This document shows positions 10,634 through 23,396 of a stretch of DNA of 64,000 bases, piece by piece. Every line of letters begins with the position of its first letter. Position 1 is the stretch's first letter. Position numbers and translations under genes: made by a program. Under the pieces are notes generated by a model. It had not been told where the DNA came from. It saw only the letters and a list, made by a program, of their open reading frames with translations, and made no database searches. This DNA comes from Candidatus Pacearchaeota archaeon (lineage in GTDB: Archaea > Nanobdellota > Nanobdellia > Pacearchaeales > GW2011-AR1), in assembly GCA_050302495.1 (NCBI GenBank), contig JBNLBP010000001.1, forward strand, positions 127,269 through 191,268, read 5' to 3'.

Positions 10634-11227
10634 ATGGATAAAAAAGAGGGAATTCTTGAATTATTTTTAGGATTGATATTTGTTGCATTATTAGTTATTA
10701 TTTCTATTTTGGTTATTGGTATGGCTGATGGGAAACAAACAGCTGTTCAAACATCAAACAGCATCCAAAATTCTTACAATGTTAATTCCTACAACCAGGT
10801 TGTCCAAAAAATTCCTGTAGAGACAAGTGCGGCTAGGAATGTTCCGGTTACCAAAAGGTTTGTTGAAAGGCCTGATTATGGCACTCATATAGTAAGTTAT
10901 GTTCGAAAAGGTTATACGAACTCTGACAACTATCAGAAAAGCCAATACCTTAGATACACTAGTTACGGAGAGCATACACAAGAAAAAACCTTTTTTAATA
11001 ACTACAGGGACGAATTTAATGTTTATGTAGTTAATAAGGATTATGCCGGAGGGTATTTTAAGGTAAAATTCGCTTTTTGTGATTATTATGATAATTGTTT
11101 CTCTGAAACCATAGAAAAATATATTCCAGCAAAAGAGGAAGCGAAGTTCACATTCATGGATGTGCAGAACGAGCGATATAAGTACCACAATTGGGAATAT
11201 AAGGTGTTTCCAGATGTTTTGGACTAG
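10634..11227 (+). CDS. membrane-anchored hypothetical protein
   Basis: N-terminal TM helix (ILELFLGLIFVALLVIISILVIG), then a Y/N-rich ectodomain. Contains an AAACAGCTGTT palindrome. Confidence 0.45.
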   Translation: MDKKEGILELFLGLIFVALLVIISILVIGMADGKQTAVQTSNSIQNSYNVNSYNQVVQKIPVETSAARNVPVTKRFVERPDYGTHIVSYVRKGYTNSDNYQKSQYLRYTSYGEHTQEKTFFNNYRDEFNVYVVNKDYAGGYFKVKFAFCDYYDNCFSETIEKYIPAKEEAKFTFMDVQNERYKYHNWEYKVFPDVLD

Positions 11228-12052: not shown

Positions 12053-12346
12053 TTAGTCTTTTGGAAGATTAAAGATTACAGCAAATCTTTCTAAGCTATC
12101 TTTTGAATTGGCTTGGGCCTCTAGAAGGCTTTGTTCTTCAGAGTCTATAAATTGGACATGAACCCCTTCAACAAGGTATTTATCAGGCGATACTGAATTT
12201 TCTAGTTGATTGTTGTAAAAGTCTTCTTTTATTGAATCGTATTTATCTTTGGGAATATTCAAAGAAGTGAATCCAAAAAAATCTATACGATCTTTCCAAA
12301 ATTCCTTGCCTTTTTCCCCCACCGTGTATCCTGTGCCAAAGATCAT
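12053..12346 (-). CDS. hypothetical protein (97 aa)
   Basis: Track ORF. No motif. Confidence 0.35.
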   Translation of the reverse strand: MIFGTGYTVGEKGKEFWKDRIDFFGFTSLNIPKDKYDSIKEDFYNNQLENSVSPDKYLVEGVHVQFIDSEEQSLLEAQANSKDSLERFAVIFNLPKD

Positions 12347-12539
12347 AGTGATTGTTAATTCTATCTCTATTTAAAGATTTAGGCTCTAGAATTTCTGAAT
12401 AATTAATAGAACTGCCAGGATGTTGCACTTAGGTTAAGTTAGTATTCTTACTAAAAAATATTGTGAAAATTTTGATTTTAAAAGAATAGTTTTTAATTAT
12501 TTAGTAAATTATTTTATAAAATGACCAAAGAAAATTAGA

Positions 12540-12790
12540 TAAACACCTGTTTAAACAGCGTTTTATCGACGGTGTAAGAACTTGGGTATTTAAGGGTGTT
12601 TGACAGGTTGTTGGAGGTGTTTGAACAGGTGTTGGATAATATTTTGTGTTTTGGGTGATTCTTAAACAGCTGTTTATAGGTGTTTGTAGCTGTTTAGAGA
12701 TGTTTAAACAGGGTGTTTGTTTGTTTTTTTCAAAATAAACGGGTGTTTAAGGGTGTTTATTATGTAAAATTTTATGTTAAAAATAGTGTA
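12540..12790. repeat. intergenic array of GGTGTTT / CAGGTGTT iterations interleaved with CTGTTTAAACAG and AAACAGCTGTTT palindromes
   Basis: At least six exact GGTGTTT copies. Palindromes at 12547-12558, 12662-12677 and 12701-12711. Confidence 0.7.
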
Positions 12791-12865
12791 AAAATTAGCA
12801 TAGAAAAAGGCTTTTTATCGATATAAGAAAGAAAAGTTTATAAACATGCTTTCTTTGTAATTACT

Positions 12866-13507
12866 ATGTTTGGATTATTTTCGAGAAAAAAAGAGATTGA
12901 TGAAGTTAAGGAAGATACAAAAAAAGGATTTGAATCTGTAAAAAAAGATATTACGGCTGTAAGCGGATGGATTAAACACCTAGATTCTGAGCGAGAAATG
13001 CAAAAAAAAGACATTTCTGAGGTTAAAGAAATTTTATCGTCGGTTCAAGAAGAGCTTGAAAGTCTCAAGAACGTGTTTTCTATGATGAATCAAACAGGTG
13101 TTTTGCCAAAAAACAAACAGGTGTTTAAAACACCTGGTAGGGTGTTTGAAGAACAAACAGGTGTTTATGCTGTTCAAACAGGTGTGCAAACGGCTGTCCA
13201 AACACCAAATTTAGAGCAATTTTCAATAACAGAGAGAGCAATTATATGGGTTATGCTAAATAGTGATATGAAGCTTAGTTATGATGATATAGCTGCTATG
13301 TTGGGAAAGGAGAGATCTACTATAAGAGGGCAGATAAATACAATAAAATCAAAGAGTGAGGGCTTAATTGAAGAGGTAATAGAGAAAAATGGTAAAAAAA
13401 GAGTGTTTATACCTGAGAAAATGAAGGAAATAATGCTCAAAAAGGCGAAAGTGAGAGTTAATAAACAAAAAAACGCGAAAAAAACTAAAAAAGTGAGTGA
13501 ATATTGA
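12866..13507 (+). CDS. coiled-coil / QTGV-repeat / C-terminal winged-HTH protein (paralog of 13702..14589)
   Basis: N-terminal K/E coiled coil. Middle region is made of AACAGGTGTTT nucleotide repeats (QTGV peptide repeats). C-terminal HTH-like LSYDDIAAMLGKERSTIRGQINTIK. Confidence 0.5.
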   Translation: MFGLFSRKKEIDEVKEDTKKGFESVKKDITAVSGWIKHLDSEREMQKKDISEVKEILSSVQEELESLKNVFSMMNQTGVLPKNKQVFKTPGRVFEEQTGVYAVQTGVQTAVQTPNLEQFSITERAIIWVMLNSDMKLSYDDIAAMLGKERSTIRGQINTIKSKSEGLIEEVIEKNGKKRVFIPEKMKEIMLKKAKVRVNKQKNAKKTKKVSEY

Positions 13508-13660
13508 AAGAAAATGAGGGTAAAAATGCTAAAAAATAAAGAAAAAGTGAGTGTTTTACAAGAGAATAGGGGCTCGAGTAAAAGCTTAGAAAAAGTGAGG
13601 ACTAATTTATCGACGGAAACAACGTAAAAGTGATAGATTTACAAGATAAAAGAAGTGATA
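13445..13660. repeat. AAAGTGAG iteron-like direct repeats (about six copies at 25-55 bp spacing)
   Basis: Copies near 13447, 13488, 13543, 13592, 13627 and 13653. They span the 3' end of the 12866 gene and the convergent intergenic spacer. Confidence 0.6.
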
Positions 13661-13701
13661 TGAATAGTCAAAGTAATTAATCGGTGTAACGAGAATCGTA
13701 A

Positions 13702-14589
13702 TTAAATATCTCTTAATTGAATTATTGTTTGTAGACTAGCAACTTTCTTTAAATCAGAAGAGACACTTAACTGGATAGACTTGTTATTTATCTTAGTTTT
13801 ATCGACGGGGATACCTTTCTTTATTAGTCTTCCAATATAATCCCTGATGGAGCTCTCTGTAAGCCCTAAAATGCTTGAAATAGCCTTATAATCAGCATAT
13901 CCTTCTTCTTCACATAATTGATATAATGTAGTGAATACTGTCATCTCTTGATCAGTGAGTCTTTTGAACTTTAGACGTATTTCTTTCTTCAAGTTATCAA
14001 GAGAGTTGAGAATTGTCATGGCATCCTTTATTGGGCTTGAAGGAGTCATTTTAGGTATGTTTTCTTGATTGTACGAACTATTATGTGTCTGTTGGTGTGT
14101 TTGTCTGTTTGTCTGTTTGTCTGTTGGAACCCCCCCATTTCCTGTGGAAATACCTAAATTTTGGGGTTCTAAGGGCTTAATATGTGTCGAATCTGTCGAA
14201 TTATGTGTCGAAATAGAGTCATTTATGTGTTGGATTGTCGAATTATGTGTCGAAGCCCTTTTAACAGGGATTTCAGGAGTGTTGGAATATGTGTTTGTCT
14301 GTTTGTCTGTTTGTCTGTTTGTCTGTTGGATAAGTATTTCAGGGTTATTTGGAGAAGAAAGAATACTTGAAAGGGAGTTTTTTTTGGATTGAAGTGTATT
14401 CTCTTTCAGTGATTTAACAATTTCTTTAATCTCATTTAAATCAGAAGAAGTATTATTTAAAGAATCTTTCAATGAGCATATCTCACCATACAAAAAGTCA
14501 ATATCTTCTTTAACTCTCAAAAAGGCCTCTTTTATTTCTTCCATTATTTCAAAAGAGGTATTAGATATAAAAAGATTAAGATAATCCAA
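13702..14589 (-). CDS. coiled-coil / tandem-repeat / C-terminal winged-HTH protein (paralog of 12866..13507)
   Basis: Same architecture as the 12866..13507 gene. C-terminal HTH-like YADYKAISSILGLTESSIRDYIGRLIKKG. Middle region encoded by (TTGTCTGT)n arrays and GAATTATGTGTCGAA repeats. Confidence 0.5.
   Translation of the reverse strand: MDYLNLFISNTSFEIMEEIKEAFLRVKEDIDFLYGEICSLKDSLNNTSSDLNEIKEIVKSLKENTLQSKKNSLSSILSSPNNPEILIQQTNRQTDKQTNTYSNTPEIPVKRASTHNSTIQHINDSISTHNSTDSTHIKPLEPQNLGISTGNGGVPTDKQTNRQTHQQTHNSSYNQENIPKMTPSSPIKDAMTILNSLDNLKKEIRLKFKRLTDQEMTVFTTLYQLCEEEGYADYKAISSILGLTESSIRDYIGRLIKKGIPVDKTKINNKSIQLSVSSDLKKVASLQTIIQLRDI
14085..14340. repeat. intragenic tandem arrays: (TTGTCTGT)4-5 at 14090-14135 and 14293-14335, and GAATTATGTGTCGAA x3 at 14181-14255
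   Basis: Read directly. On the coding (minus) strand these give KQTNRQT and STHNS peptide repeats. Confidence 0.75.
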
Positions 14590-14597
14590 GATAATGT

Positions 14598-14867
14598 TTA
14601 ATTTGCTAGCTTCCTATAAGAAGAATATGCTTTATCAGATAGTTTCCATCTTGATCGTTTCAAATAAGGTATACCTGAAGGATTTTTCTTTATTTCATTA
14701 ACAAGACCTTTCTTTTTTAGCCTAAGTAATAAAGTTTTGGTGAATTCTTCATCCCTCACAACTTCATGTGCAACATTAATTGTGAAAACTGCTTTAGGAG
14801 ATATAGAAAATAGATATGAAATGATTTGTTCACATATTCTCTCTTTTTTTTGTTCTGAAATACGCAT
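14598..14867 (-). CDS. small basic protein, possible winged-helix DNA-binding
   Basis: 89 aa, directly upstream of 13702..14589 on the same strand. K/R-rich C-terminus. Confidence 0.35.
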   Translation of the reverse strand: MRISEQKKERICEQIISYLFSISPKAVFTINVAHEVVRDEEFTKTLLLRLKKKGLVNEIKKNPSGIPYLKRSRWKLSDKAYSSYRKLAN

Positions 14868-14946
14868 AAGGAGGATAAGAAAATACTTTTTTTAAATATG
14901 ATGTATTATATAATAAATTAGAGTAGGAATAATTAGCAAATTTAAA

Positions 14947-15387
14947 TTATTTCTTTGGAGAAGAACCTTGTGCAGAATTCTTAGCTGGTTTCACCGAGGG
15001 TAAAGGCACATGAGAAGGTAAATTTATTTCTTCTTCCAATTGAAGAGCTTTAAGATTACATTTCTTTAAAATAACATTGAATAAAGGTAATCTGAATTCT
15101 TCAGGAACAGATTTTTTAGCCCATTCTTTTATAAATAATTCCGCTTCTTTAGCTGGCATTGATACTAAAACCATTCCTGAAAAGAATATCTTAGCAAACT
15201 TAGGTTCATATGAGATCTCATAACTAAAATCAACACCTAGAAGAGATTCTTTTGATTGAATAACATCAGACTTAACGTCTTTTACGTCTGCAATATCTAT
15301 ATTTGTATTAACCTTTAAGTTTTCAACAAGTGTTTTAGAATATTTCTCTGCACCAATTTTAGAAAAGTTAAAACCAACTAATTTCAT
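14947..15387 (-). CDS. hypothetical protein (146 aa)
   Basis: Track ORF. No motif. Confidence 0.4.
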   Translation of the reverse strand: MKLVGFNFSKIGAEKYSKTLVENLKVNTNIDIADVKDVKSDVIQSKESLLGVDFSYEISYEPKFAKIFFSGMVLVSMPAKEAELFIKEWAKKSVPEEFRLPLFNVILKKCNLKALQLEEEINLPSHVPLPSVKPAKNSAQGSSPKK

Positions 15388-15467
15388 AATACCAAGAGAA
15401 AGTTTTTGTTTTTAAATATTTTGGTAGTTGAAAAGGATTGTTAGTCTTTTTTATTAGAATAATCTAA

Positions 15468-15728
15468 TTATATTAAGTCTTCTTCAGAAACAATAACGAA
15501 GTCTCCTATAGCTACAATAGAGCTATAAGGTATTAACAGCTCGTTTGAAGATGTTTTCTCTAGGTTAAGATTTCTGGTATAGGGAGTTGTATCTTTTACA
15601 ACGATATTAATTAATTCCCCAGATCTTGTCTCAAAGAGAATATCCTTAACAAATCCTAATCTTTTTCCCTCTTTTGTTACAATCATTTTACCCACAAGAG
15701 CATTGAAAGGAGTCTTTTCTGTTTGCAT
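15468..15728 (-). CDS. PRC-barrel domain protein
   Basis: 86 aa. The GKMIVTKEGKRLGFVKDILFETRSGELINIVV pattern is typical of small archaeal PRC-barrel proteins. Confidence 0.6.
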   Translation of the reverse strand: MQTEKTPFNALVGKMIVTKEGKRLGFVKDILFETRSGELINIVVKDTTPYTRNLNLEKTSSNELLIPYSSIVAIGDFVIVSEEDLI

Positions 15729-15813
15729 GAGAAGGTGAGACCTAACAAATTTATAAAGTTTTCTGTGAGAATATATAGAGATTAGAGGAGATACTTAATA
15801 ATACTCTATATAA

Positions 15814-15985
15814 ATAATAATAATAATAATAATAAATTATTATATATAACACCCCCACCCCATTACTTCTTATGGAAATATTTAAAAAGAAATTGATTGA
15901 CTTTTTCTTTTTTATTTTATTTAAAAAAATTTATATTATATATTATATATATAATATAAATAATAATAATAATAATAATAATAAT
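15814..15985. repeat. (AAT)n microsatellites (about 7 and 8 units) within the origin AT-rich region
   Basis: aataataataataataat runs at 15814-15836 and 15957-15985. Confidence 0.8.
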
Positions 15986-16146
15986 TGTTCTATTTGGTGA
16001 TTATTTAGAAATTGTTCTCCATAGGAAATAAAGGTGTTTTTATTTCTTAGTGATTATAATCCTTTATATAATAAACTCCGTTTTCTCCGTTGGTTATGTT
16101 CCTTTGGAGGTATTTTCCACAGGAAATAAACGTGTGGGTGTGATAA
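15845..16146. promoter_or_regulatory. predicted chromosomal replication origin (oriC): AT-rich unwinding element flanked by ORB-like dyads, immediately upstream of orc1/cdc6
   Basis: ORB-like elements TCTCCATAGGAAATAAAGGTG (16015-16036) and TTTCCACAGGAAATAAACGTGTGGGTG (16124-16150). A third copy lies on the opposite strand at 15849-15880 (TTTCCATAAGAAG..GGGGTGGGGGTG) with a G-string. A >90% A+T stretch containing an (AAT)8 run sits between the inverted elements (15881-16010). An inverted core TTCCTTTGGA is at 16100. Confidence 0.6.
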
Positions 16147-16148
16147 AG

Positions 16149-17360
16149 ATGGCATTAGATATTGATGGTTTGTTTAACTCTTTTCATAAAGAGGGTATAT
16201 TCAAAGATAAAAGCTTACTACAAATAAACCATAAACCTGAAGAGATTCCTCATAGGGATGAACAGATAAAGCAAATTGTTTCTATTCTGGCTCCTGTACT
16301 TAGGGGTGAGAAACCTAGTAATCTTTTTGTTTATGGTAAAACTGGTACTGGTAAGACTCTTTCTGTTCAATTTGTTCAAGATGAATTAATAAGGAGATTC
16401 TCTAGAGAATCTGATTTTAAGCTTAGAATTGAATATTTAAATTGTAAACTTAAGAAGATTGCTGATACAGAATATAGAATCCTTGCGGAATTAATTAAGA
16501 AACTAGGTGGTGAGGTTCCTGAGACTGGCTTGCCTACTCAGTCTGTTTATGGTAAATTTGTAGATTTAGTAGATACTGAGAAACAATTGATTGTTTTAGT
16601 TTTAGATGAGATCGATCAAACTGTTAAGAAAATTTCTAGTGACTTTCTTTATAACCTTACTAGATTAAACTCCGAATTATCTAAAACTCAAATTTGTGTG
16701 GTGGGTATTAGTAACAATCTTACTTTTTTGGATGAATTAGACCCAAGAGTTAGAAGTTCACTGAGTGAAGAGGAGATAGTTTTTCCCCCATATAATGCTG
16801 TTCAGTTGCAAGAAATTTTGAATAAGCGTTCAAATGTTGCATTTAGGGAAGGTATTGTTGAAGAAGGTGTTATTGCTAAGTGTGCTGCTTTTGCTGCTAG
16901 AGAGCATGGTGATGCTAGAAGAGCATTAGATCTCTTAAGAGTTGCAGGGGAATTGGCTGAAAGAGCGGGTTCTGAAAAAGTTTTACTCGAACATATAGAT
17001 CAGGCCAATGATAAAATAGAAAAGGACAAGATTTTGGATATTGTTGAATCTGAACCTAGGCAATTTCAACTTGTATTATACTCCATTATAAATCTAATTG
17101 AGAAAGATAAAGATCATTCTATATTTACAGGAGATGTTTACAACTATTATCAGGATTTATGTTCTAAGAATCGATCAGAAGTTCTTACTCAAAGAAGAGT
17201 CTCAGATATAATACAAGAATTTGACATGTTAGGTATCATTAATGTAAGAGTTATTTCTAAGGGTAGAGGTGGGAGAATGAGGGAAATAAAGTTAGCTATT
17301 TCAAATAATATATTAAATAAGGTTAAAGAGATCATTGAACACTCTCTTAATTATAGATAA
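16149..17360 (+). CDS. orc1: Orc1/Cdc6 replication initiator
   Basis: AAA+ Walker A GKTGTGKT. Walker B VLVLDEID. C-terminal winged helix. N-terminal MALDIDGLFNSF...INHKPEEIPHRDEQ is typical of Cdc6. The ATG at 16149 is preferred over the track's alternative start at 16050, which would run through the ORB elements. Confidence 0.9.
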   Translation: MALDIDGLFNSFHKEGIFKDKSLLQINHKPEEIPHRDEQIKQIVSILAPVLRGEKPSNLFVYGKTGTGKTLSVQFVQDELIRRFSRESDFKLRIEYLNCKLKKIADTEYRILAELIKKLGGEVPETGLPTQSVYGKFVDLVDTEKQLIVLVLDEIDQTVKKISSDFLYNLTRLNSELSKTQICVVGISNNLTFLDELDPRVRSSLSEEEIVFPPYNAVQLQEILNKRSNVAFREGIVEEGVIAKCAAFAAREHGDARRALDLLRVAGELAERAGSEKVLLEHIDQANDKIEKDKILDIVESEPRQFQLVLYSIINLIEKDKDHSIFTGDVYNYYQDLCSKNRSEVLTQRRVSDIIQEFDMLGIINVRVISKGRGGRMREIKLAISNNILNKVKEIIEHSLNYR

Positions 17361-18940
17361 TGGGTGATGAAATTGTTAAATTTTGTTTTGAAAGGGGCTT
17401 ATTATTAGATAATGAAATACTTGATTTGTTTAGACAGGAGAATGATTTTGAATCGGTCAAATTAGTTATAGAGAAAATAAAGAGTAAAACTCAAGAGAAA
17501 ATAATTACTAGAGATGTTCTATCTGTTAATCAGGAGAAAATAAGACAGGTTTTTTTGGAACTTCCTTATGAAAAACAGAAAATACTTGAGAATTTGAAAA
17601 TAAAGTTGGGTTTGAGCATAGAAATATCTAGAGAGATTAAACAAGAGGTAAGCACTTCTTTTAATTTAGAAGAACCAAGTGTTAAAATTTTTGATTCTCC
17701 TAAGCTTGTTGAGAAGAAGTTAGAAGTTCAGGATTTTACTAAGTATTTTAGGTCTAGATTTGATCAAATGAAGGGGGTTCTTATGACCCATTCCGCTTTG
17801 AATAATCTTGTTTCAATAAATAAGATTTCAGGTAATAGGTCTAATTTTTCCTTGATTGGCATTGTTAGGGATAAAAGTGTTACTAAAAATAAAAATCTTA
17901 TGTTAGAGGTTGAAGATTTTACTGGAAAAATAAAGGTTCTTATTAATCAAAATAAGAAGGAAGTTTATGAAGAAGCACAAGATATTGCTCTTGATTCGGT
18001 GTTAGGGTTTAGTGGTTCAGGGAATAGTGAGATATTTTTTGCTAATGAGGTTATTTTTCCAGATTCTATGCTTCCAGAGAGAAAAAAGGCTTTTGTGGAG
18101 GAATTTGCTCTTTTTATTGGGGATTTACATTTTGGAAGTAAGAGGTTTTTGAGAAAAGGTTTTGAGAATTTTATAAATTATATTAATGGCGATGCTGGTA
18201 ATAGAGATGAAGTAATGAAGATAAAATATCTTTTTTTAGTGGGAGATGTTGTTACGGGTGTTGGAAATTATCCTAATCAAGAGCCTGATTTAGAAATAAA
18301 TGATCTTGAGGAACAGTTTACTCAATTGGCAGGCTTGTTGGGGAGGATAAGAAAAGATATTAAGATTATTATTTCTCCTGGAAATCATGATGGTGTTAGA
18401 ATTATGGAACCTCAACCCTTACTCAATGAAAAATATGCTTGGCCTCTCTTTGATATGGATAATGTGATTATGACTACAAACCCTTGCAATGTTAATATTG
18501 CTTCAAGGGAAGGATTTTCTGGTTGGGATATTTTGACTTATCATGGTTTTTCATTTCCTTATTATGCTGGAAATATACCTTCTTTAATAAAAAAGAAGGC
18601 TATGAATTCCCCTGAAGAAATTATGAAATTTTTACTCAAGAATAGACATCTTGCTCCAACCCATGGTTCTACCCAGTATTATCCTTTAGAAGAAGATTCT
18701 TTGTTTATAAAAAAGGTCCCAGATATATTGGTTTCTGGACATACTCATAAAGCAGGTATTGTTTACTATAATAATATCCTAATTATTTCAGTTGCTTGTT
18801 GGGAAGGGATGACTCCTTATCAGGAGAAGTTTGGTAATAAACCGGATCATTGTAAGGTTCCAATGGTTAATCTTAAGACAAGGTCTGTTAAAATTCTTGA
18901 TTTTGAGGATCTTGAAGAGACTGAAGAGAAAAGCGTTTAA
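17360..18940 (+). CDS. DNA polymerase D small subunit (DP1, 3'-5' exonuclease, calcineurin-like phosphoesterase)
   Basis: MPP motifs GDLHFGS, GNHD and GHTH with an N-terminal OB-like region. 1-nt overlap with the orc1 stop. Confidence 0.88.
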   Translation: MGDEIVKFCFERGLLLDNEILDLFRQENDFESVKLVIEKIKSKTQEKIITRDVLSVNQEKIRQVFLELPYEKQKILENLKIKLGLSIEISREIKQEVSTSFNLEEPSVKIFDSPKLVEKKLEVQDFTKYFRSRFDQMKGVLMTHSALNNLVSINKISGNRSNFSLIGIVRDKSVTKNKNLMLEVEDFTGKIKVLINQNKKEVYEEAQDIALDSVLGFSGSGNSEIFFANEVIFPDSMLPERKKAFVEEFALFIGDLHFGSKRFLRKGFENFINYINGDAGNRDEVMKIKYLFLVGDVVTGVGNYPNQEPDLEINDLEEQFTQLAGLLGRIRKDIKIIISPGNHDGVRIMEPQPLLNEKYAWPLFDMDNVIMTTNPCNVNIASREGFSGWDILTYHGFSFPYYAGNIPSLIKKKAMNSPEEIMKFLLKNRHLAPTHGSTQYYPLEEDSLFIKKVPDILVSGHTHKAGIVYYNNILIISVACWEGMTPYQEKFGNKPDHCKVPMVNLKTRSVKILDFEDLEETEEKSV

Positions 18941-18995
18941 TTATATGTTTTAGATAACATATTAGTATTAAAATGGAAAAATATTTTGATTAAAA

Positions 18996-19595
18996 ATGGT
19001 AGAAAAATTGAAAATAGGTATAGATATTGATGATGTTGTTGCAGAATTTTTTAAACCCTATTTGGAATTTCATAATTCTAAGTTCAATACCTCTCATGAT
19101 TTTGAAGATATTACAAATCCTTTTATTTGGGAACAACTGGGTTTTAGTGTAGAAGAGATGCAACCTCATTTTGAAGATTTTGAAAAGAATTCAACCCCTG
19201 TGAAAGATTTTCCTTTGGTTGAACATTCTAAGGAAGCAATAGATGAATTGGCAGAGACTTGTGACATTTTTATTATTAGTTCAAGACCCAATAAACTTTT
19301 TGATGAAACTGTTTTATTTTTTGAAAAGAATTTTCCTGGAAATAATTTTGAAATTATTTTTTCAGGAGAGATCCATGATGAGGATAAACGTAATTTATCG
19401 AAGCATGAGATATGTAATAATTTGGGTATAAATGTTATGGTTGAGGATAATCCTACTTATGCTTTTGAGTGTGCAAGAAATGGGATAAAGACTTTTTTGA
19501 TAGACCGGCCTTGGAATAGGGTTTTTGAGGAACATGATAACATAATAAAAGTTAATGGTTGGAAAGAGGTGTTGGATCACTTAAATGATAAATGA
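18996..19595 (+). CDS. 5'(3')-deoxyribonucleotidase-like HAD phosphatase
   Basis: N-terminal KIGIDIDDVVAEF (DxDxV motif), typical of the NT5C family. Confidence 0.6.
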   Translation: MVEKLKIGIDIDDVVAEFFKPYLEFHNSKFNTSHDFEDITNPFIWEQLGFSVEEMQPHFEDFEKNSTPVKDFPLVEHSKEAIDELAETCDIFIISSRPNKLFDETVLFFEKNFPGNNFEIIFSGEIHDEDKRNLSKHEICNNLGINVMVEDNPTYAFECARNGIKTFLIDRPWNRVFEEHDNIIKVNGWKEVLDHLNDK

Positions 19596-19917
19596 TAAAG
19601 GTGAATTAGTTATGGAATTGATGCATGAAGAGGAAAAGAAGGAAATTTTGAAGATAGGTCTTGTTTATAATGTTCAGGTTGGAGAAAGTAGTGTAAGGTC
19701 AGGTATTTTGACTAGTAAAAATAGAAATGATCTTTATAAAATTCTTGTAAATAGTTTACCTGCAGATAGGATGAATGATCCCCGGATTTATCCTTTTAGA
19801 GAATATTCTTTTGAAAATGATTTGTTGAAAATTCGTTGTTCTTCTGGACCTGAAATTATTTCAAAATATTCTAAGAAATATAGGGAGCTTAAACCGTTTT
19901 TAGAGAAATTAGAATGA
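19585..19917 (+). CDS. hypothetical protein (110 aa)
   Basis: Track ORF overlapping both neighbours by a few nt. No motif. Confidence 0.35.
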   Translation: MINDKGELVMELMHEEEKKEILKIGLVYNVQVGESSVRSGILTSKNRNDLYKILVNSLPADRMNDPRIYPFREYSFENDLLKIRCSSGPEIISKYSKKYRELKPFLEKLE

Positions 19918-22900
19918 AAACTGAAACATATTTTGAAAATTTGAAGAAAGAAGTTGATAAGGTTTATGTAGTAGCAAATGAAGCTAGAAGAAAGGGTTTT
20001 GACCCTGTTGATGAAGTCGAGATACCTTTGGCTATGAATATGGCTGAGAAGGTTGTAGGTATTATTTCTACAGTTTACCCTCAAATGTTGAATTCGGGAA
20101 TATCTAAAAGAATTGTTGAGCTTGAGAAACAATTTGGAAAACTTGATGCTACTGTCTCATTTAAAATTGCGGAAGAAGTTGCAAAACAGAAATTTTGTAA
20201 GTTTGAAAATACTCTTGAAGCAATGGATGCGGGTATACGTGTTGGTTTTGGTTATCAGACAATAGGTGTTGTATCTTCCCCAATTGAAGGATTTACTGGG
20301 TTGAAGGTTCGACATACTAAAGATGGGAAAGAGTATATTGAAGCAAGTTTTTCTGGACCTATTCGTTCGGCTGGAACGACGGCTTCTTGTATTGTTTTGA
20401 TGATTATTGATTTTTTGAGGGAGACTTTTGGTTATGCGAAGTATGATCCTACTGATGATGAAATTAAGAGGGTTTGGACCGAATTAGAGCATTTCCATGA
20501 CCGTATAACTAATTTGCAGGGAATGCCTACAGAAGCGGAAGCATTGTTTTTAGCTGAGAGAATGCCTATACAGGTTGCAGGTGATGCTTCTGAAAGAATT
20601 GAAGTTCCAAATTATAAAAATCTTGAAAGGGTTGATACCGATTTTTTGAGGAGTGGTTTTTGTTTGATTATGGCTGAAGGGTTATCTCAGAAAGCAAAGA
20701 AGGGTTTTAGATTGTATACTAATGCTAAGAAAAATGGAGTAAACATGACTGGTTTTGATTGGCTGGATGAATATCTCGTCTTACAGGAGAAGATTAGTAA
20801 AGGTAAGACCAAATCTGTTAATTCTGTTCCGCCTTATATTAGAGATTTGGTTGCAGGTAGACCTGTATTTGGCCATCCATCGCGAAGTGGAAGTTTTAGA
20901 TTTAGATATGGTAGAGGAAGAAATTCTGGGTTCTCTGCTGCTTCAGTACATCCTGCTACTATGGCAATATCTGATAATTTTATTGCTGTAGGGACTCAAT
21001 TGAAAATAGAGAAACCAACAAAGGGTTGCGCAATAAGTTCTTGTGACTCAATTGATGGCCCTATTATAAAATTATTTAATGGAAGTGTAAAGAAACTCCA
21101 TAATCAACAGGAAGCTAAGCAATATTATCCTGATACAGAAGAAATAATTTATTTTGGAGATATTCTCTTCCCTTTTAGTGATGTTTTGAATAGAAATTAT
21201 AATTTGCTTAAACCTGGTTATGTTGAAGAATGGTGGGAATTGGAGTTGAAAGAGAAAAATCCTTTAGAAGAATATCATGGTTTTAATCTAAAAATTGATG
21301 AAGCAATTAATTTGAGTAAAAAATATGGTGTTGCATTGAATCCTAAATTTATTTTTTATTGGACTCAGATTTCTAAAGAGCATTTTAGGGGGTTGATTGA
21401 TTGGCTGAAATATTCTAAGGTTGATGGAAAAATTATTTTGCCTTACGAAAAGAATAGCAATGAAAAATTTATTTTTGGAAAGAGGGCTTTGGAACTTTTA
21501 GGTATTGAGCATGATGTCACATTAGAACATGTTGTTTTATCTGAATTGAATTCAAAGGCTTTACTGGTGAACCTTGGTTTGAATCTTGATGTTCATTTAT
21601 CTAGAACTTTGAAAGAAGAAATAGATGGTTTGGAGAAAAAGATTAACTTTGATAGCGAAAATATTTTGGAAGAAATTAATAAAGTTTCAGAATTTTTAAT
21701 AAAAGATAAAGCTGGAGATTTTGTGGGTGCACGGATGGGTCGTCCAGAAAAAGCAAAATTGAGAAAACTGACCGGTAGTCCAAATATTCTTTTTCCGGTG
21801 GGTAATGAAGGAGGGAGATTAAGGAGTTTACAAGCCGCTTGTGAAATTGGTAAAGTTTTTAGTTCGTTTCCATTAAATTATTGTGAGAAATGTGCTAAAG
21901 AGACTATTTACCCTAAGTGTGAAACTTGTGGTGAAAAAATCAGGGAGCAATTTTATTTTCCACGTCTTAAGGAGAAGAGTTTTTCAAAAGAGATAGAAGG
22001 TTCGGATAGACCTGGTATGAGGTATTCAGGTAGATCTATTGATATTAATCACTATTATTCTAATGCTTTGGAGCTTTTAAAAATGGATAAGAATGAAGCA
22101 CCCGTTTTGATAAAAGGTATAAGGGGTATGAGTTCAGAAGGTAAGGAAACAGAACATTTGGTTAAGGGTATTTTAAGGGCCAAATATGGTTTGCAAGTAA
22201 ATAAGGATGGTACCATAAGGGTTGATGGGACTGAGTTGCCCGTTACGCATTTTAAACCAAAAGAAGTTTCAGTTAGTGTTGAGAAATTGAAAGAAATTGG
22301 ATATGATTTTGATATATATGGTAAACCTCTTGAGAATGAAAATCAAATCTTGGAAATAATGCCTCATGATGTTATTTTGCCTTGTAGTCCTGATTCTCTT
22401 GATGAGAAATGTGATGATGTTTTTTCTAAAGTTTCTAATTTTGTTGATGAGCTTTTGACTAAATTTTATGGTGTTGGTAATTTTTATAATGTGAAGAAAA
22501 GAGAAGATCTTGTGGGAAAATTGGGTGTTTTTATGGCACCTCACAATTGTGCAGGAGTTGTTTGTAGGTTTATTGGTTTTTCAAAAACCCAAGGGCTTTT
22601 GGCTAGCCCTTATATGCATGCTGCAGTTAGAAGAGATTGTGATGGAGATGAGGCTGCAGTTATGTTGTTGGGTGATGTTTTATTGAATTTCTCAAGAAAA
22701 TTCTTGCCAAGTCATAGGGGAGGTACTCAAGATGCTCCTTTGGTTTTGAATGCTAGGATTGATGCTGGAGAGGTTGATGATCAAATCTTGGATTTTGAAG
22801 CAACACCTGAAGGTCATTACCCTTTATCTTTGTATAAACTTGCAGAACAAGGAAATCATTCAAGTGAAGCTAAAGATGTTGTAATTGTTAAAACTGTTTT

Positions 22901-23396
22901 GAAAGAAGGAAGAGATCCTTTCCGTAATTTGGGTTTTACCCATGATACTTCTGATTTCAATGAAGCAGTTTTATGTTCTTCATATAAATTATTAGCAACT
23001 ATGCAGGATAAAGTTCAACACCAGATGGAATTGGTTGAGAAGCTAAGGAGTGTTGATACTTCTGATACTGCAAGATTGATTATTGAAAGACATTTCATTA
23101 GAGATTTAAGAGGTAATTTAAGAAAATTCTCTCAACAAGAGTTTAGATGCGTTGCTTGTAATGAAATAATAAGAAGGCCTCCTTTGAAAGGGGTTTGTAG
23201 TTCTTGTGGTGGAAAATTGATTTTTACAATTCACGAAGGGGGTATTAAGAAATATCTCGAACCTGCACTAGATTTAGCAAAAAAATATAATTTGTCAACT
23301 TATTTACAACAGAATTTGGAATTGGTTAAGGGCTATATTGATAGTATCTTTGGGAAAGAATTGGAAAAACAAGAGAATATTAGTAAATGGTTTTAG
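19914..23396 (+). CDS. DNA polymerase D large subunit (DP2)
   Basis: 1160 aa. Conserved DP2 blocks and C-terminal Zn-binding CxxC pairs (CVACN...CSSCGG). No intein-sized insertion. Confidence 0.9.
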   Translation: MKTETYFENLKKEVDKVYVVANEARRKGFDPVDEVEIPLAMNMAEKVVGIISTVYPQMLNSGISKRIVELEKQFGKLDATVSFKIAEEVAKQKFCKFENTLEAMDAGIRVGFGYQTIGVVSSPIEGFTGLKVRHTKDGKEYIEASFSGPIRSAGTTASCIVLMIIDFLRETFGYAKYDPTDDEIKRVWTELEHFHDRITNLQGMPTEAEALFLAERMPIQVAGDASERIEVPNYKNLERVDTDFLRSGFCLIMAEGLSQKAKKGFRLYTNAKKNGVNMTGFDWLDEYLVLQEKISKGKTKSVNSVPPYIRDLVAGRPVFGHPSRSGSFRFRYGRGRNSGFSAASVHPATMAISDNFIAVGTQLKIEKPTKGCAISSCDSIDGPIIKLFNGSVKKLHNQQEAKQYYPDTEEIIYFGDILFPFSDVLNRNYNLLKPGYVEEWWELELKEKNPLEEYHGFNLKIDEAINLSKKYGVALNPKFIFYWTQISKEHFRGLIDWLKYSKVDGKIILPYEKNSNEKFIFGKRALELLGIEHDVTLEHVVLSELNSKALLVNLGLNLDVHLSRTLKEEIDGLEKKINFDSENILEEINKVSEFLIKDKAGDFVGARMGRPEKAKLRKLTGSPNILFPVGNEGGRLRSLQAACEIGKVFSSFPLNYCEKCAKETIYPKCETCGEKIREQFYFPRLKEKSFSKEIEGSDRPGMRYSGRSIDINHYYSNALELLKMDKNEAPVLIKGIRGMSSEGKETEHLVKGILRAKYGLQVNKDGTIRVDGTELPVTHFKPKEVSVSVEKLKEIGYDFDIYGKPLENENQILEIMPHDVILPCSPDSLDEKCDDVFSKVSNFVDELLTKFYGVGNFYNVKKREDLVGKLGVFMAPHNCAGVVCRFIGFSKTQGLLASPYMHAAVRRDCDGDEAAVMLLGDVLLNFSRKFLPSHRGGTQDAPLVLNARIDAGEVDDQILDFEATPEGHYPLSLYKLAEQGNHSSEAKDVVIVKTVLKEGRDPFRNLGFTHDTSDFNEAVLCSSYKLLATMQDKVQHQMELVEKLRSVDTSDTARLIIERHFIRDLRGNLRKFSQQEFRCVACNEIIRRPPLKGVCSSCGGKLIFTIHEGGIKKYLEPALDLAKKYNLSTYLQQNLELVKGYIDSIFGKELEKQENISKWF

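Follow-up and report, generated by a model that had tools for sequence, protein, structure and literature searches.

DNA sites that are bound by proteins and lie within coding sequence are known close to bacterial replication origins; in Bacillus subtilis a parS site lies inside the coding sequence of parB/spo0J, and other origin-proximal protein-binding sites are embedded in genes. Plasmid iterons and clusters of DnaA boxes are likewise initiator or regulator sites repeated near an origin. Short intragenic repeats occur in a different setting in the contingency genes of bacteria such as Haemophilus and Neisseria, where phase-variable tetranucleotide repeats are found. Here, a 64-kb stretch of DNA from a Candidatus Pacearchaeota archaeon (the window; ~32% GC, archaeal) was analyzed for the repeats carried by a minus-strand gene that encodes a helix-turn-helix (HTH) protein and is located ~1.6 kb (nearest ends) from the gene for the initiator Orc1/Cdc6. 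The repeats, originally predicted to be hypervariable or phase-variable, appear on balance to be a cis-acting DNA module of the origin region that overlaps the coding sequence of a disordered linker.

Published Origin Recognition Boxes (ORBs) include TTTCCACTGGAAACAG-AGGGGT and GTTCCAGTGGAAATGA-AGGGGT, with the archaeal consensus CTTCCAGTGGAAACGAAAGGGGT (PMC4153887), and GTTCCAGTGGAAAC-AAA-GGGGG (PMC1868953). The form found in Methanomassiliicoccales, GGAAATGG-AGGGGT, has a 4-nt spacer, as against 5 nt in the archaeal consensus GGAAACGAAAGGGGT (PMC4153887). Judged by its sequence, the element within the HTH gene at 14128-14150 is a canonical archaeal ORB. Its dyad, TTTCCACAGGAAA at 14138-14150 on the minus strand, matches the dyad core TTCCA-N(2-3)-TGGAA(A) perfectly, and a 22-nt ORB pattern is found only twice in the 64 kb, at 14128-14149(-) and 16115-16136(+), against 0.23 expected matches. 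The HTH gene carries an ORB in 81/81 genomes, namely the window and 80 species-level relatives, the DNA of which was compared over loci L001-L080. Within the family the consensus reads ATTTCCACWGGAAATNAAGGGGTT; of 74 orthologous intragenic sites, 69 have a perfect dyad and 64 have a 4-nt spacer between dyad and G-string (the window has GGAAATGGGGGGGTT). The intragenic site thus resembles the archaeal ORB in its 13-bp dyad TTTCCAC[A/T]GGAAA and its G-string, shares the 4-nt spacer with Methanomassiliicoccales, and has sister copies that invert around an AT-rich region beside orc1/cdc6. It differs from published ORBs in lying inside a coding gene, always in one reading frame, and in its conserved TTCCA-(ACAR)n extension; after some haloarchaeal ORBs only 'long GT-stretches' are mentioned (PMC1868953).

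ORB-like sites are confined almost wholly to the origin block, and their orientations follow a clear logic. With a criterion of dyad plus G-string applied to the 81 genomes, density was 1.75 sites/kb in the spacer between cdc6 and a PRC-barrel gene (44/51 loci), where the strands separated completely, the 22 minus-strand sites all falling in the half next to cdc6 and the 36 plus-strand sites all in the half next to the PRC gene; it was 1.42 sites/kb in the HTH gene (81/81 genomes, 83/85 sites on the coding strand), 0.40 sites/kb upstream of a paralog of the HTH gene (12 loci, 12/13 sites on the minus strand), and 0.016 sites/kb in the remaining 690 kb. A profile built solely from the intragenic elements found further matches (E <= 0.05) almost exclusively in the cdc6-PRC spacer and the paralog upstream region. 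The intragenic ORB shares its orientation with the flanking ORB found on its own side of the AT-rich element; in the window it is ~1.75 kb from that element, inside an open reading frame (ORF), and oriented as expected for its side. The putative ORBs inverted around the AT-rich candidate unwinding region beside orc1/cdc6 present the classical layout of an origin.

The constraint that selection places on the ORB and its following tract acts at the level of nucleic acid. Although protein identity to relatives is 42-55% (68% in one partial match), third-codon identity over ORB and tract is 0.83-1.00, mostly 0.98-1.00, and 0.59 at the dyad centre, among 46 orthologs; at invariant HTH residues it is 0.3-0.8. 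Constraint is assigned to the DNA because third positions are near-fixed in ORB and tract yet variable at invariant residues of the HTH. Residues 147-165 use nearly single codons in these orthologs (ATT 1.00, TCC 1.00, GGA 1.00, GGG 0.98, GTT 1.00, CCA 0.97, ACA 1.00, GAC 1.00, AGA 1.00, CAG 0.98), against gene-wide use of 14% for TCC, 27% for GGG, 37% for GAC, and 31% for CAG, while the third position is free at invariant HTH residues (R205 AGA 0.30, L243 TTA 0.35, S247 TCT 0.54). Outside the HTH, conservation among 20 aligned proteins (48-72% identity) is highest in LGISTGNxGVPTD[RK]QT[ND]xQT, where array 1 is located and where G153, V154, T156, D157, Q159, T160, Q163, and T164 are invariant; the nucleotides common to relatives read ATTTCCACWGGAAAYNNAGGGGTTCCAACAGACAGACAGAC... 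The substitutions seen in the tract are A/G swaps that keep ACAR and alter the residue, and across the element the ACAR and YCR patterns persist through residue changes (D/N, R/K, P/S).

The tract follows the ORB directly and in register in 74 of the 75 loci scored for it; it has 3-10 ACAR units, always read TxxQ, and it opens with 16 nt, ACAGACARACAGACAR, that nearly all 74 share, the exceptions being one all-ACAA tract and one with G. Three contigs recovered as metagenome matches to the flanks of array 1, which are distant relatives rather than strains (the gene is ~52% nucleotide-identical), share a 63-nt block, identical spacing, and a tract length of 29 nt. A scan of viral contigs for ORB plus tract gave no match.

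The repeats in the window consist of two (ACAR)n arrays separated by 194 bp, with copies of a 15-mer between them. Tandem Repeats Finder (TRF) recovered both octamer arrays of the original prediction, although exact octamer units number only three in array 1 (TTGTCTGT at 14101-14124). The period of 8 stands, but the underlying unit is 4 nt: ACAR is read T-[D/N]-[R/K]-Q, with in-frame (ACAG)3 giving T-D-R-Q and (ACAA)3 giving T-N-K-Q, and the octamer is a local form that results from alternation of ACAG and ACAA in the window. Array 1 follows the ORB directly after CCA (ACAGACAAACAGACAAACAGACAA...). Array 2 reads (ACAGACAA)4, or eight ACAR units, on the minus strand; TCCA precedes it in the same way, and this further copy of TCCA-(ACAR)n has no ORB. 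The 16-mer (TTGTCTGT)2 with up to two mismatches has six matches in 64 kb, all within the two arrays, where 0.12 would be expected. An equation of the window's CTGTTTG units with an intergenic [CG]TGTTT site was downgraded, most relatives having (ACAG)n without AAACAG, so that the ACAG core alone is shared.

Of three supposed copies of the 15-mer GAATTATGTGTCGAA, two are exact (14198-14212 and 14240-14254), whereas that at 14177-14191 has 3 mismatches; TRF finds a degenerate 22-nt period in this region. The reverse complement, TTCGACACATAATTC, contains the core TYCRACASAT (TTCGACACAT or TCCAACACAT, read S/P-T-H), 9 of whose 23 matches in the whole window fall in 14088-14329. Relatives have two to five copies upstream of the ORB, in which Ser is encoded by TCG in 96% (12% gene-wide) and Thr by ACA in 100%. 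The motif also stands after the intragenic ORB, as TTCCAACAGAC, and after the G-string of an ORB upstream of the paralog, as GGGGCTTCGACACATAA. As had been claimed, every repeat keeps the minus-strand reading frame (QTNRQTDKQT, STHNST, TDKQTNRQTHQQT), and the Cys-rich ORFs present on the plus strand (14069..14392 and 14182..14370) are spurious by-products, since the minus-strand ORF is conserved in >2000 homologs. Array 2 and the 15-mers sit in the variable part of the linker; an upstream second tract of the array-2 kind occurs in only 21/113 homologs, with 1-2 TxxQ units.

Table 1. Features of the window around the HTH gene and the candidate origin. Structural features come from an AlphaFold2 (AF2) model, with its predicted local distance difference test (pLDDT) values.
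Feature	Coordinates	Strand	Details
[CG]TGTTT / AAACA[CG] array	12520..12770		Intergenic, upstream of paralog; 14 copies vs 0.58 expected
Paralog gene	12866..13507	+	Same architecture as HTH gene: coiled coil, linker, HTH
HTH gene	13702..14544	-	280-aa product: predicted coiled-coil helix, disordered linker, MarR-like winged HTH
C-terminal winged HTH (predicted)	13708..14034	-	AF2 pLDDT 85-95
Disordered linker (predicted)	14047..14340	-	Residues 84-181; AF2 pLDDT <50 (~40), no secondary structure
Array 1, (ACAR)n tract	14086..14125	-	TRF period 8, 5.0 copies, 87% matches; encodes TDKQTNRQTHQQT
ORB (by sequence), TTTCCACAGGAAATGGGGGGGTT	14128..14150	-	Dyad TTTCCACAGGAAA, then G-string (TGGGGGGGTT); read I-S-T-G-N-G-G-V
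TYCRACASAT motif copies	14177..14254	-	TTCGACACATAA or TCCAACACATAA; encode S/P-T-H
Array 2	14292..14327	-	TRF period 8, 4.5 copies, 100% matches; encodes QTNRQTDKQTN
N-terminal long helix (predicted coiled coil)	14359..14544	-	AF2 residues 2-77, pLDDT 79-96
Candidate oriC core	15850..16136		ORB-like sites and AT-rich unwinding region
Degenerate ORB	15850-15879	-	
AT-rich candidate unwinding region	15880-16010		AT 0.916; most AT-rich stretch of 64 kb
Degenerate ORB	16016-16037	+	
ORB	16115-16136	+	13 nt before cdc6 start codon
orc1/cdc6 initiator	16149..17360	+	TIGR02928, 429.5 bits vs cutoff 181.3

The gene had been delimited as 13702..14589. An ORF of that extent exists and opens at TTG, but the database protein P0001, which is 100% identical from M16, begins at ATG 14544, and this ATG is probably the true start because that protein and all homologs begin with M-[DE]-x-IKEAF. 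A total of 2079 homologs of 222-311 aa were found, with indels in the linker; those that are named come from metagenome-assembled genomes of Woesearchaeota, Pacearchaeota, or Nanoarchaeota. Three members (P0014, P0034, and P0037) bear source names such as 'ribosomal protein L16 Arg81 hydroxylase' and 'chromosome segregation ATPase', which look like annotation noise from the coiled coil and low-complexity linker. The linker holds the ORB and every repeat named in the original prediction; it has the character of an intrinsically disordered low-complexity segment, being structureless in the AF2 model and variable in length among homologs, and the encoded peptide is predicted to be disordered even across the family-invariant ISTGNxGVPTDRQT. 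The C-terminal domain is modeled as a winged HTH, for which Foldseek returned MarR, CodY, and ArsR winged-HTH folds (E = 1e-4 to 2e-3; MarR-family ~1e-4) and profile searches of the PDB an HTH of Lrp/AsnC type (E ~0.007). Pfam gave weak HTH_36/HTH_24 matches, with HTH_36 and DnaD_N below threshold, and searches of Pfam, NCBIfam, and PDB sequences yielded sub-threshold or generic HTH/coiled-coil matches only; as sequence scores fall under the Pfam cutoffs, the predicted winged HTH is not assigned to a specific family.

Gene order around the candidate origin is conserved in the 80 loci as far as their flanks reach (DP2-DP1-Cdc6, then PRC-p146-p89-HTH, then the paralog). Over 12866-23396 and in L001-L080, PolD DP2, a 199-aa protein (given in brackets in the conserved order), DP1, and Cdc6 are encoded on one side; divergent from Cdc6 are the genes for the PRC-barrel protein (86 aa), proteins of 146 and 89 aa, and the HTH protein, and the convergent paralog gene comes next. 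The ORFs 17360-18940 and 19914-23396 are, from their sequences, presumably the two PolD subunits, and the 146-aa and 89-aa neighbors matched no Pfam or NCBIfam family. The candidate origin at 15729-16148, directly upstream of orc1/cdc6, has its AT peak at 15861-15921 (0.90-0.93) and contains (AAT)n and (ATA)n runs.

The region at 12.5-14.4 kb is a conserved motif field that adjoins the origin. The N-terminus of the paralog is 31% identical to that of the HTH-gene protein (BLASTP E = 2e-7), and HTH_ParB matches the paralog weakly (E = 0.021). Its linker peptide QTGVYAVQTGVQTAVQT (13073-13205) is encoded by repeated CAAACAGSTGTY, with third-codon identity of 0.9-1.0 among 71 orthologs and G/A/P-variable columns that keep nucleotides 1 and 3, and is a second instance, besides the HTH gene, of linker-coding sequence that contains a DNA motif; both this linker and the upstream region carry the related embedded motif ACAGSTGT. 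Many copies in the array at 12520-12770 take the form of AAACAGSTGTTT or TGTTTAAACA palindromes, and the array is conserved in ~70 relatives. Matches to the ACAG core or TYCRACASAT cluster in 12500-14400, which holds 35 of the 147 in the window against 4.4 expected. Counting its complement, the 8-mer TATCGACG, which contains CG, has four occurrences in 64 kb (12564, 13035, 13608, and 13800), all in a 1.3-kb span at the two HTH genes.

Further elements were seen around the paralog. Relatives have a TTATCGWCG box immediately upstream of the paralog's TATA-like AAAnATTTTTAAA, and a box GTGCACTTAGGTnnnCTTAGT is conserved far upstream in most of them (L012-L078), with gttgcacttaggttaagttagt at ~12418-12445 in the window and no Rfam match. 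Twelve relatives, but not the window, carry a further ORB upstream of the paralog (e.g., L013:7612, L023:7555, L027:7895, L030:7734); it occupies the strand opposite to that of the intragenic ORB and ends in the tail GGGGCTTCGACACAT, and its distance upstream of the paralog is ~110-220 bp in the three loci checked for it. The 197-aa protein encoded at 10634-11227 has a hydrophobic helix at its N-terminus and also contains KQTAVQT; its homologs are present in 13 loci, ~1.2-2.1 kb past the paralog start codon on its far side from the HTH gene.

The explanation that we favor, with rather better than even confidence, is that the repeats constitute a cis-acting origin-region DNA module that overlaps the coding sequence of a disordered linker, the octamer arrays and 15-mer copies being this genome's version of it. 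The core of such a module would comprise the ORB dyad TTTCCAC[A/T]GGAAA, the 4-nt spacer, and the G-string, with the ORB extended by TTCCA or TTTCGA and then (ACAR)n, and with 2-5 TYCRACASAT copies upstream. Selection would act on the DNA, and the peptide (ISTGNxGVP-TDRQ-TDRQ-T..., S/P-T-H repeats) would for the most part be a passenger, its frame preserved by the need to translate the C-terminal winged HTH. As part of the replication-origin region adjacent to orc1/cdc6, the ORB would be bound by Orc1/Cdc6, while a second sequence-specific factor, possibly one of three small local HTH proteins, may bind the ACAR and TYCRACA repeats. As with parS and parB, a putative protein-binding site here overlaps an origin-proximal gene for a DNA-binding protein; the sequences and proteins are unrelated, however, and binding by the encoded HTH protein to its own gene is not implied. 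The repetition of short motifs (ACAG core, TYCRACASAT) beside an origin and HTH genes recalls iterons and DnaA boxes, but no Rep-type initiator is found at this locus.

Several points weigh against this explanation. An ORB located inside an ORF and 1.7-2.6 kb from the cdc6 start codon (seven loci) is unusual for ORBs. The ORBs flanking the putative unwinding element are without the TTCCA-(ACAR)n extension, and the putative occupancy of the intragenic ORB by Orc1/Cdc6 is deduced from sequence similarity and location. The constraint might be dual, with the peptide also functioning as a linear motif. At 16 kb the cumulative GC skew, computed over the window, has no clear turning point. To our knowledge the origins of this clade have not been mapped experimentally, and a literature search found no paper on ORBs in DPANN archaea, nor any publication on an ORB fixed inside coding sequence.

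More tentatively, and as a possibility that we regard as doubtful, the locus could represent an undescribed origin-linked nucleoprotein module in DPANN archaea of the Woesearchaeales and Pacearchaeales type, which would encode its own sites and serve in origin regulation or in a centromere-like role. Its components would be Orc1/Cdc6 and the two paralogous proteins with coiled coil and winged HTH, brought together on the motif arrays ORB-TTCCA-(ACAR)n, TYCRACASAT, and AAACAGSTGTTT within the proteins' own linker-coding regions and the adjoining spacer.

An unlikely alternative is that the repeats are operator or centromere-like sites for the local HTH proteins (HTH gene, 12866..13507, and the 89-aa protein at 14598..14867) rather than for Orc1/Cdc6, these proteins binding arrays in and around their own genes in the manner of ParB at a parS within parB/spo0J. 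Three small DNA-binding proteins are encoded in the strictly conserved block, and the ACAG-core (AAACAGSTGTTT, (ACAR)n) and TYCRACASAT repeats, which belong to no published ORB, cluster at the HTH genes, as do all 4 TATCGACG matches (12564-13800); these motifs also adjoin the pair of ORBs closest to the HTH genes and not those flanking the unwinding element, and the HTH_ParB match of the paralog, weak as it is, points the same way. The best-conserved core, however, is a textbook ORB whose sole relatives flank the AT-rich region beside cdc6, and nothing ties any of the HTH proteins to any motif. For the repeats other than the ORB, such binding can coexist with the favored origin module.

It is improbable that the element works in RNA, the dyad forming an mRNA hairpin and the tract affecting translation (through pausing between domains) or mRNA stability. 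A 5-bp hairpin could form from the dyad, and conservation at synonymous sites would be equally expected; yet copies of the element also stand in non-coding DNA around the AT-rich region, facing both ways and degenerate in one half only, and five intragenic dyad variants each break one side of a pair with no compensatory change. A G-string at fixed spacing is a trait of ORBs and not of hairpins, and no Rfam family was detected in 12300-16200 at E <= 1. Pairing of an upstream CCCC with the G-string, as a cruciform or RNA stem, was considered and dropped, the CCCC not being conserved.

A purely protein-level account, that of a Q/T-rich low-complexity linker with the short linear motif STGNxGVPTDRQT whose codons were made uniform by slippage, carries a similarly small probability. 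The peptide is indeed the most conserved stretch outside the HTH, and microsatellites can homogenize their units, but synonymous positions are equally fixed in the ORB part, which is not repetitive and uses rare codons (TCC, GGG, TCG). Moreover, residues change (D/N, R/K, P/S) where the ACAR/YCR pattern stays, the AF2 model gives the peptide no structure, and the DNA fits an independently published DNA motif.

The original prediction raised slippage as a source of on/off switching or linker hypervariability, and the arithmetic behind it is sound: the unit length is not divisible by 3, as in the tetranucleotide repeats of contingency genes, and a single 8-nt (or 4-nt) change would shift the frame. 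Tracts of as many as 10 perfect ACAG units occur in relatives, and the proposed check of orthologs did reveal that TxxQ number differs between species (1-4). No tract-length polymorphism was found, however, in nine clusters at >=90% identity with ~45 full-length variants, nor any frameshifted allele among 74 species-level tract-bearing loci, and exactly three TxxQ units are present in 93/113 homologs. One relative shows a copy-number variant of a 7-aa unit (PTLQHIN, 21 nt) elsewhere in the linker; of two aberrant database fragments, P0141 diverges inside the tract (an ambiguous case) and P0129 is frameshifted upstream. Near-identical strains of the window organism were not found by contig-index look-ups of the 295- and 280-aa proteins or by metagenome flank scans, the array-2 flanks giving no match, and the P0001 cluster has one member. 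Linker length does vary between species, including around array 2, but array 1 is among the most conserved DNA of the gene. Contingency genes differ from this tract, which is conserved in length and sequence across species and has close variants without on/off alleles or length polymorphism. Phase variation is thus not supported, hypervariability is contradicted for array 1, and, given short window arrays of 3-4 exact octamers and a near-fixed first 16 nt, a contingency locus is highly improbable here and for array 1 largely refuted.

An intragenic repeat whose unit is not a triplet need not, therefore, mean a contingency locus. If the favored explanation is true, the most conserved 'protein motif' of this family would be a DNA element, a case of overlapping codes in which a DNA site determines the 'peptide motif' that a family of >2000 members conserves best; such overlap would mislead motif annotation, predictions of disorder and linear motifs, and analyses of dN/dS (the ratio of nonsynonymous to synonymous substitution rates). 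The conserved layout, in which ORBs invert around an AT-rich element beside cdc6, the HTH gene invariably holds an ORB, and arrays surround the paralog, would provide a concrete map of cis-elements for a large uncultured clade.

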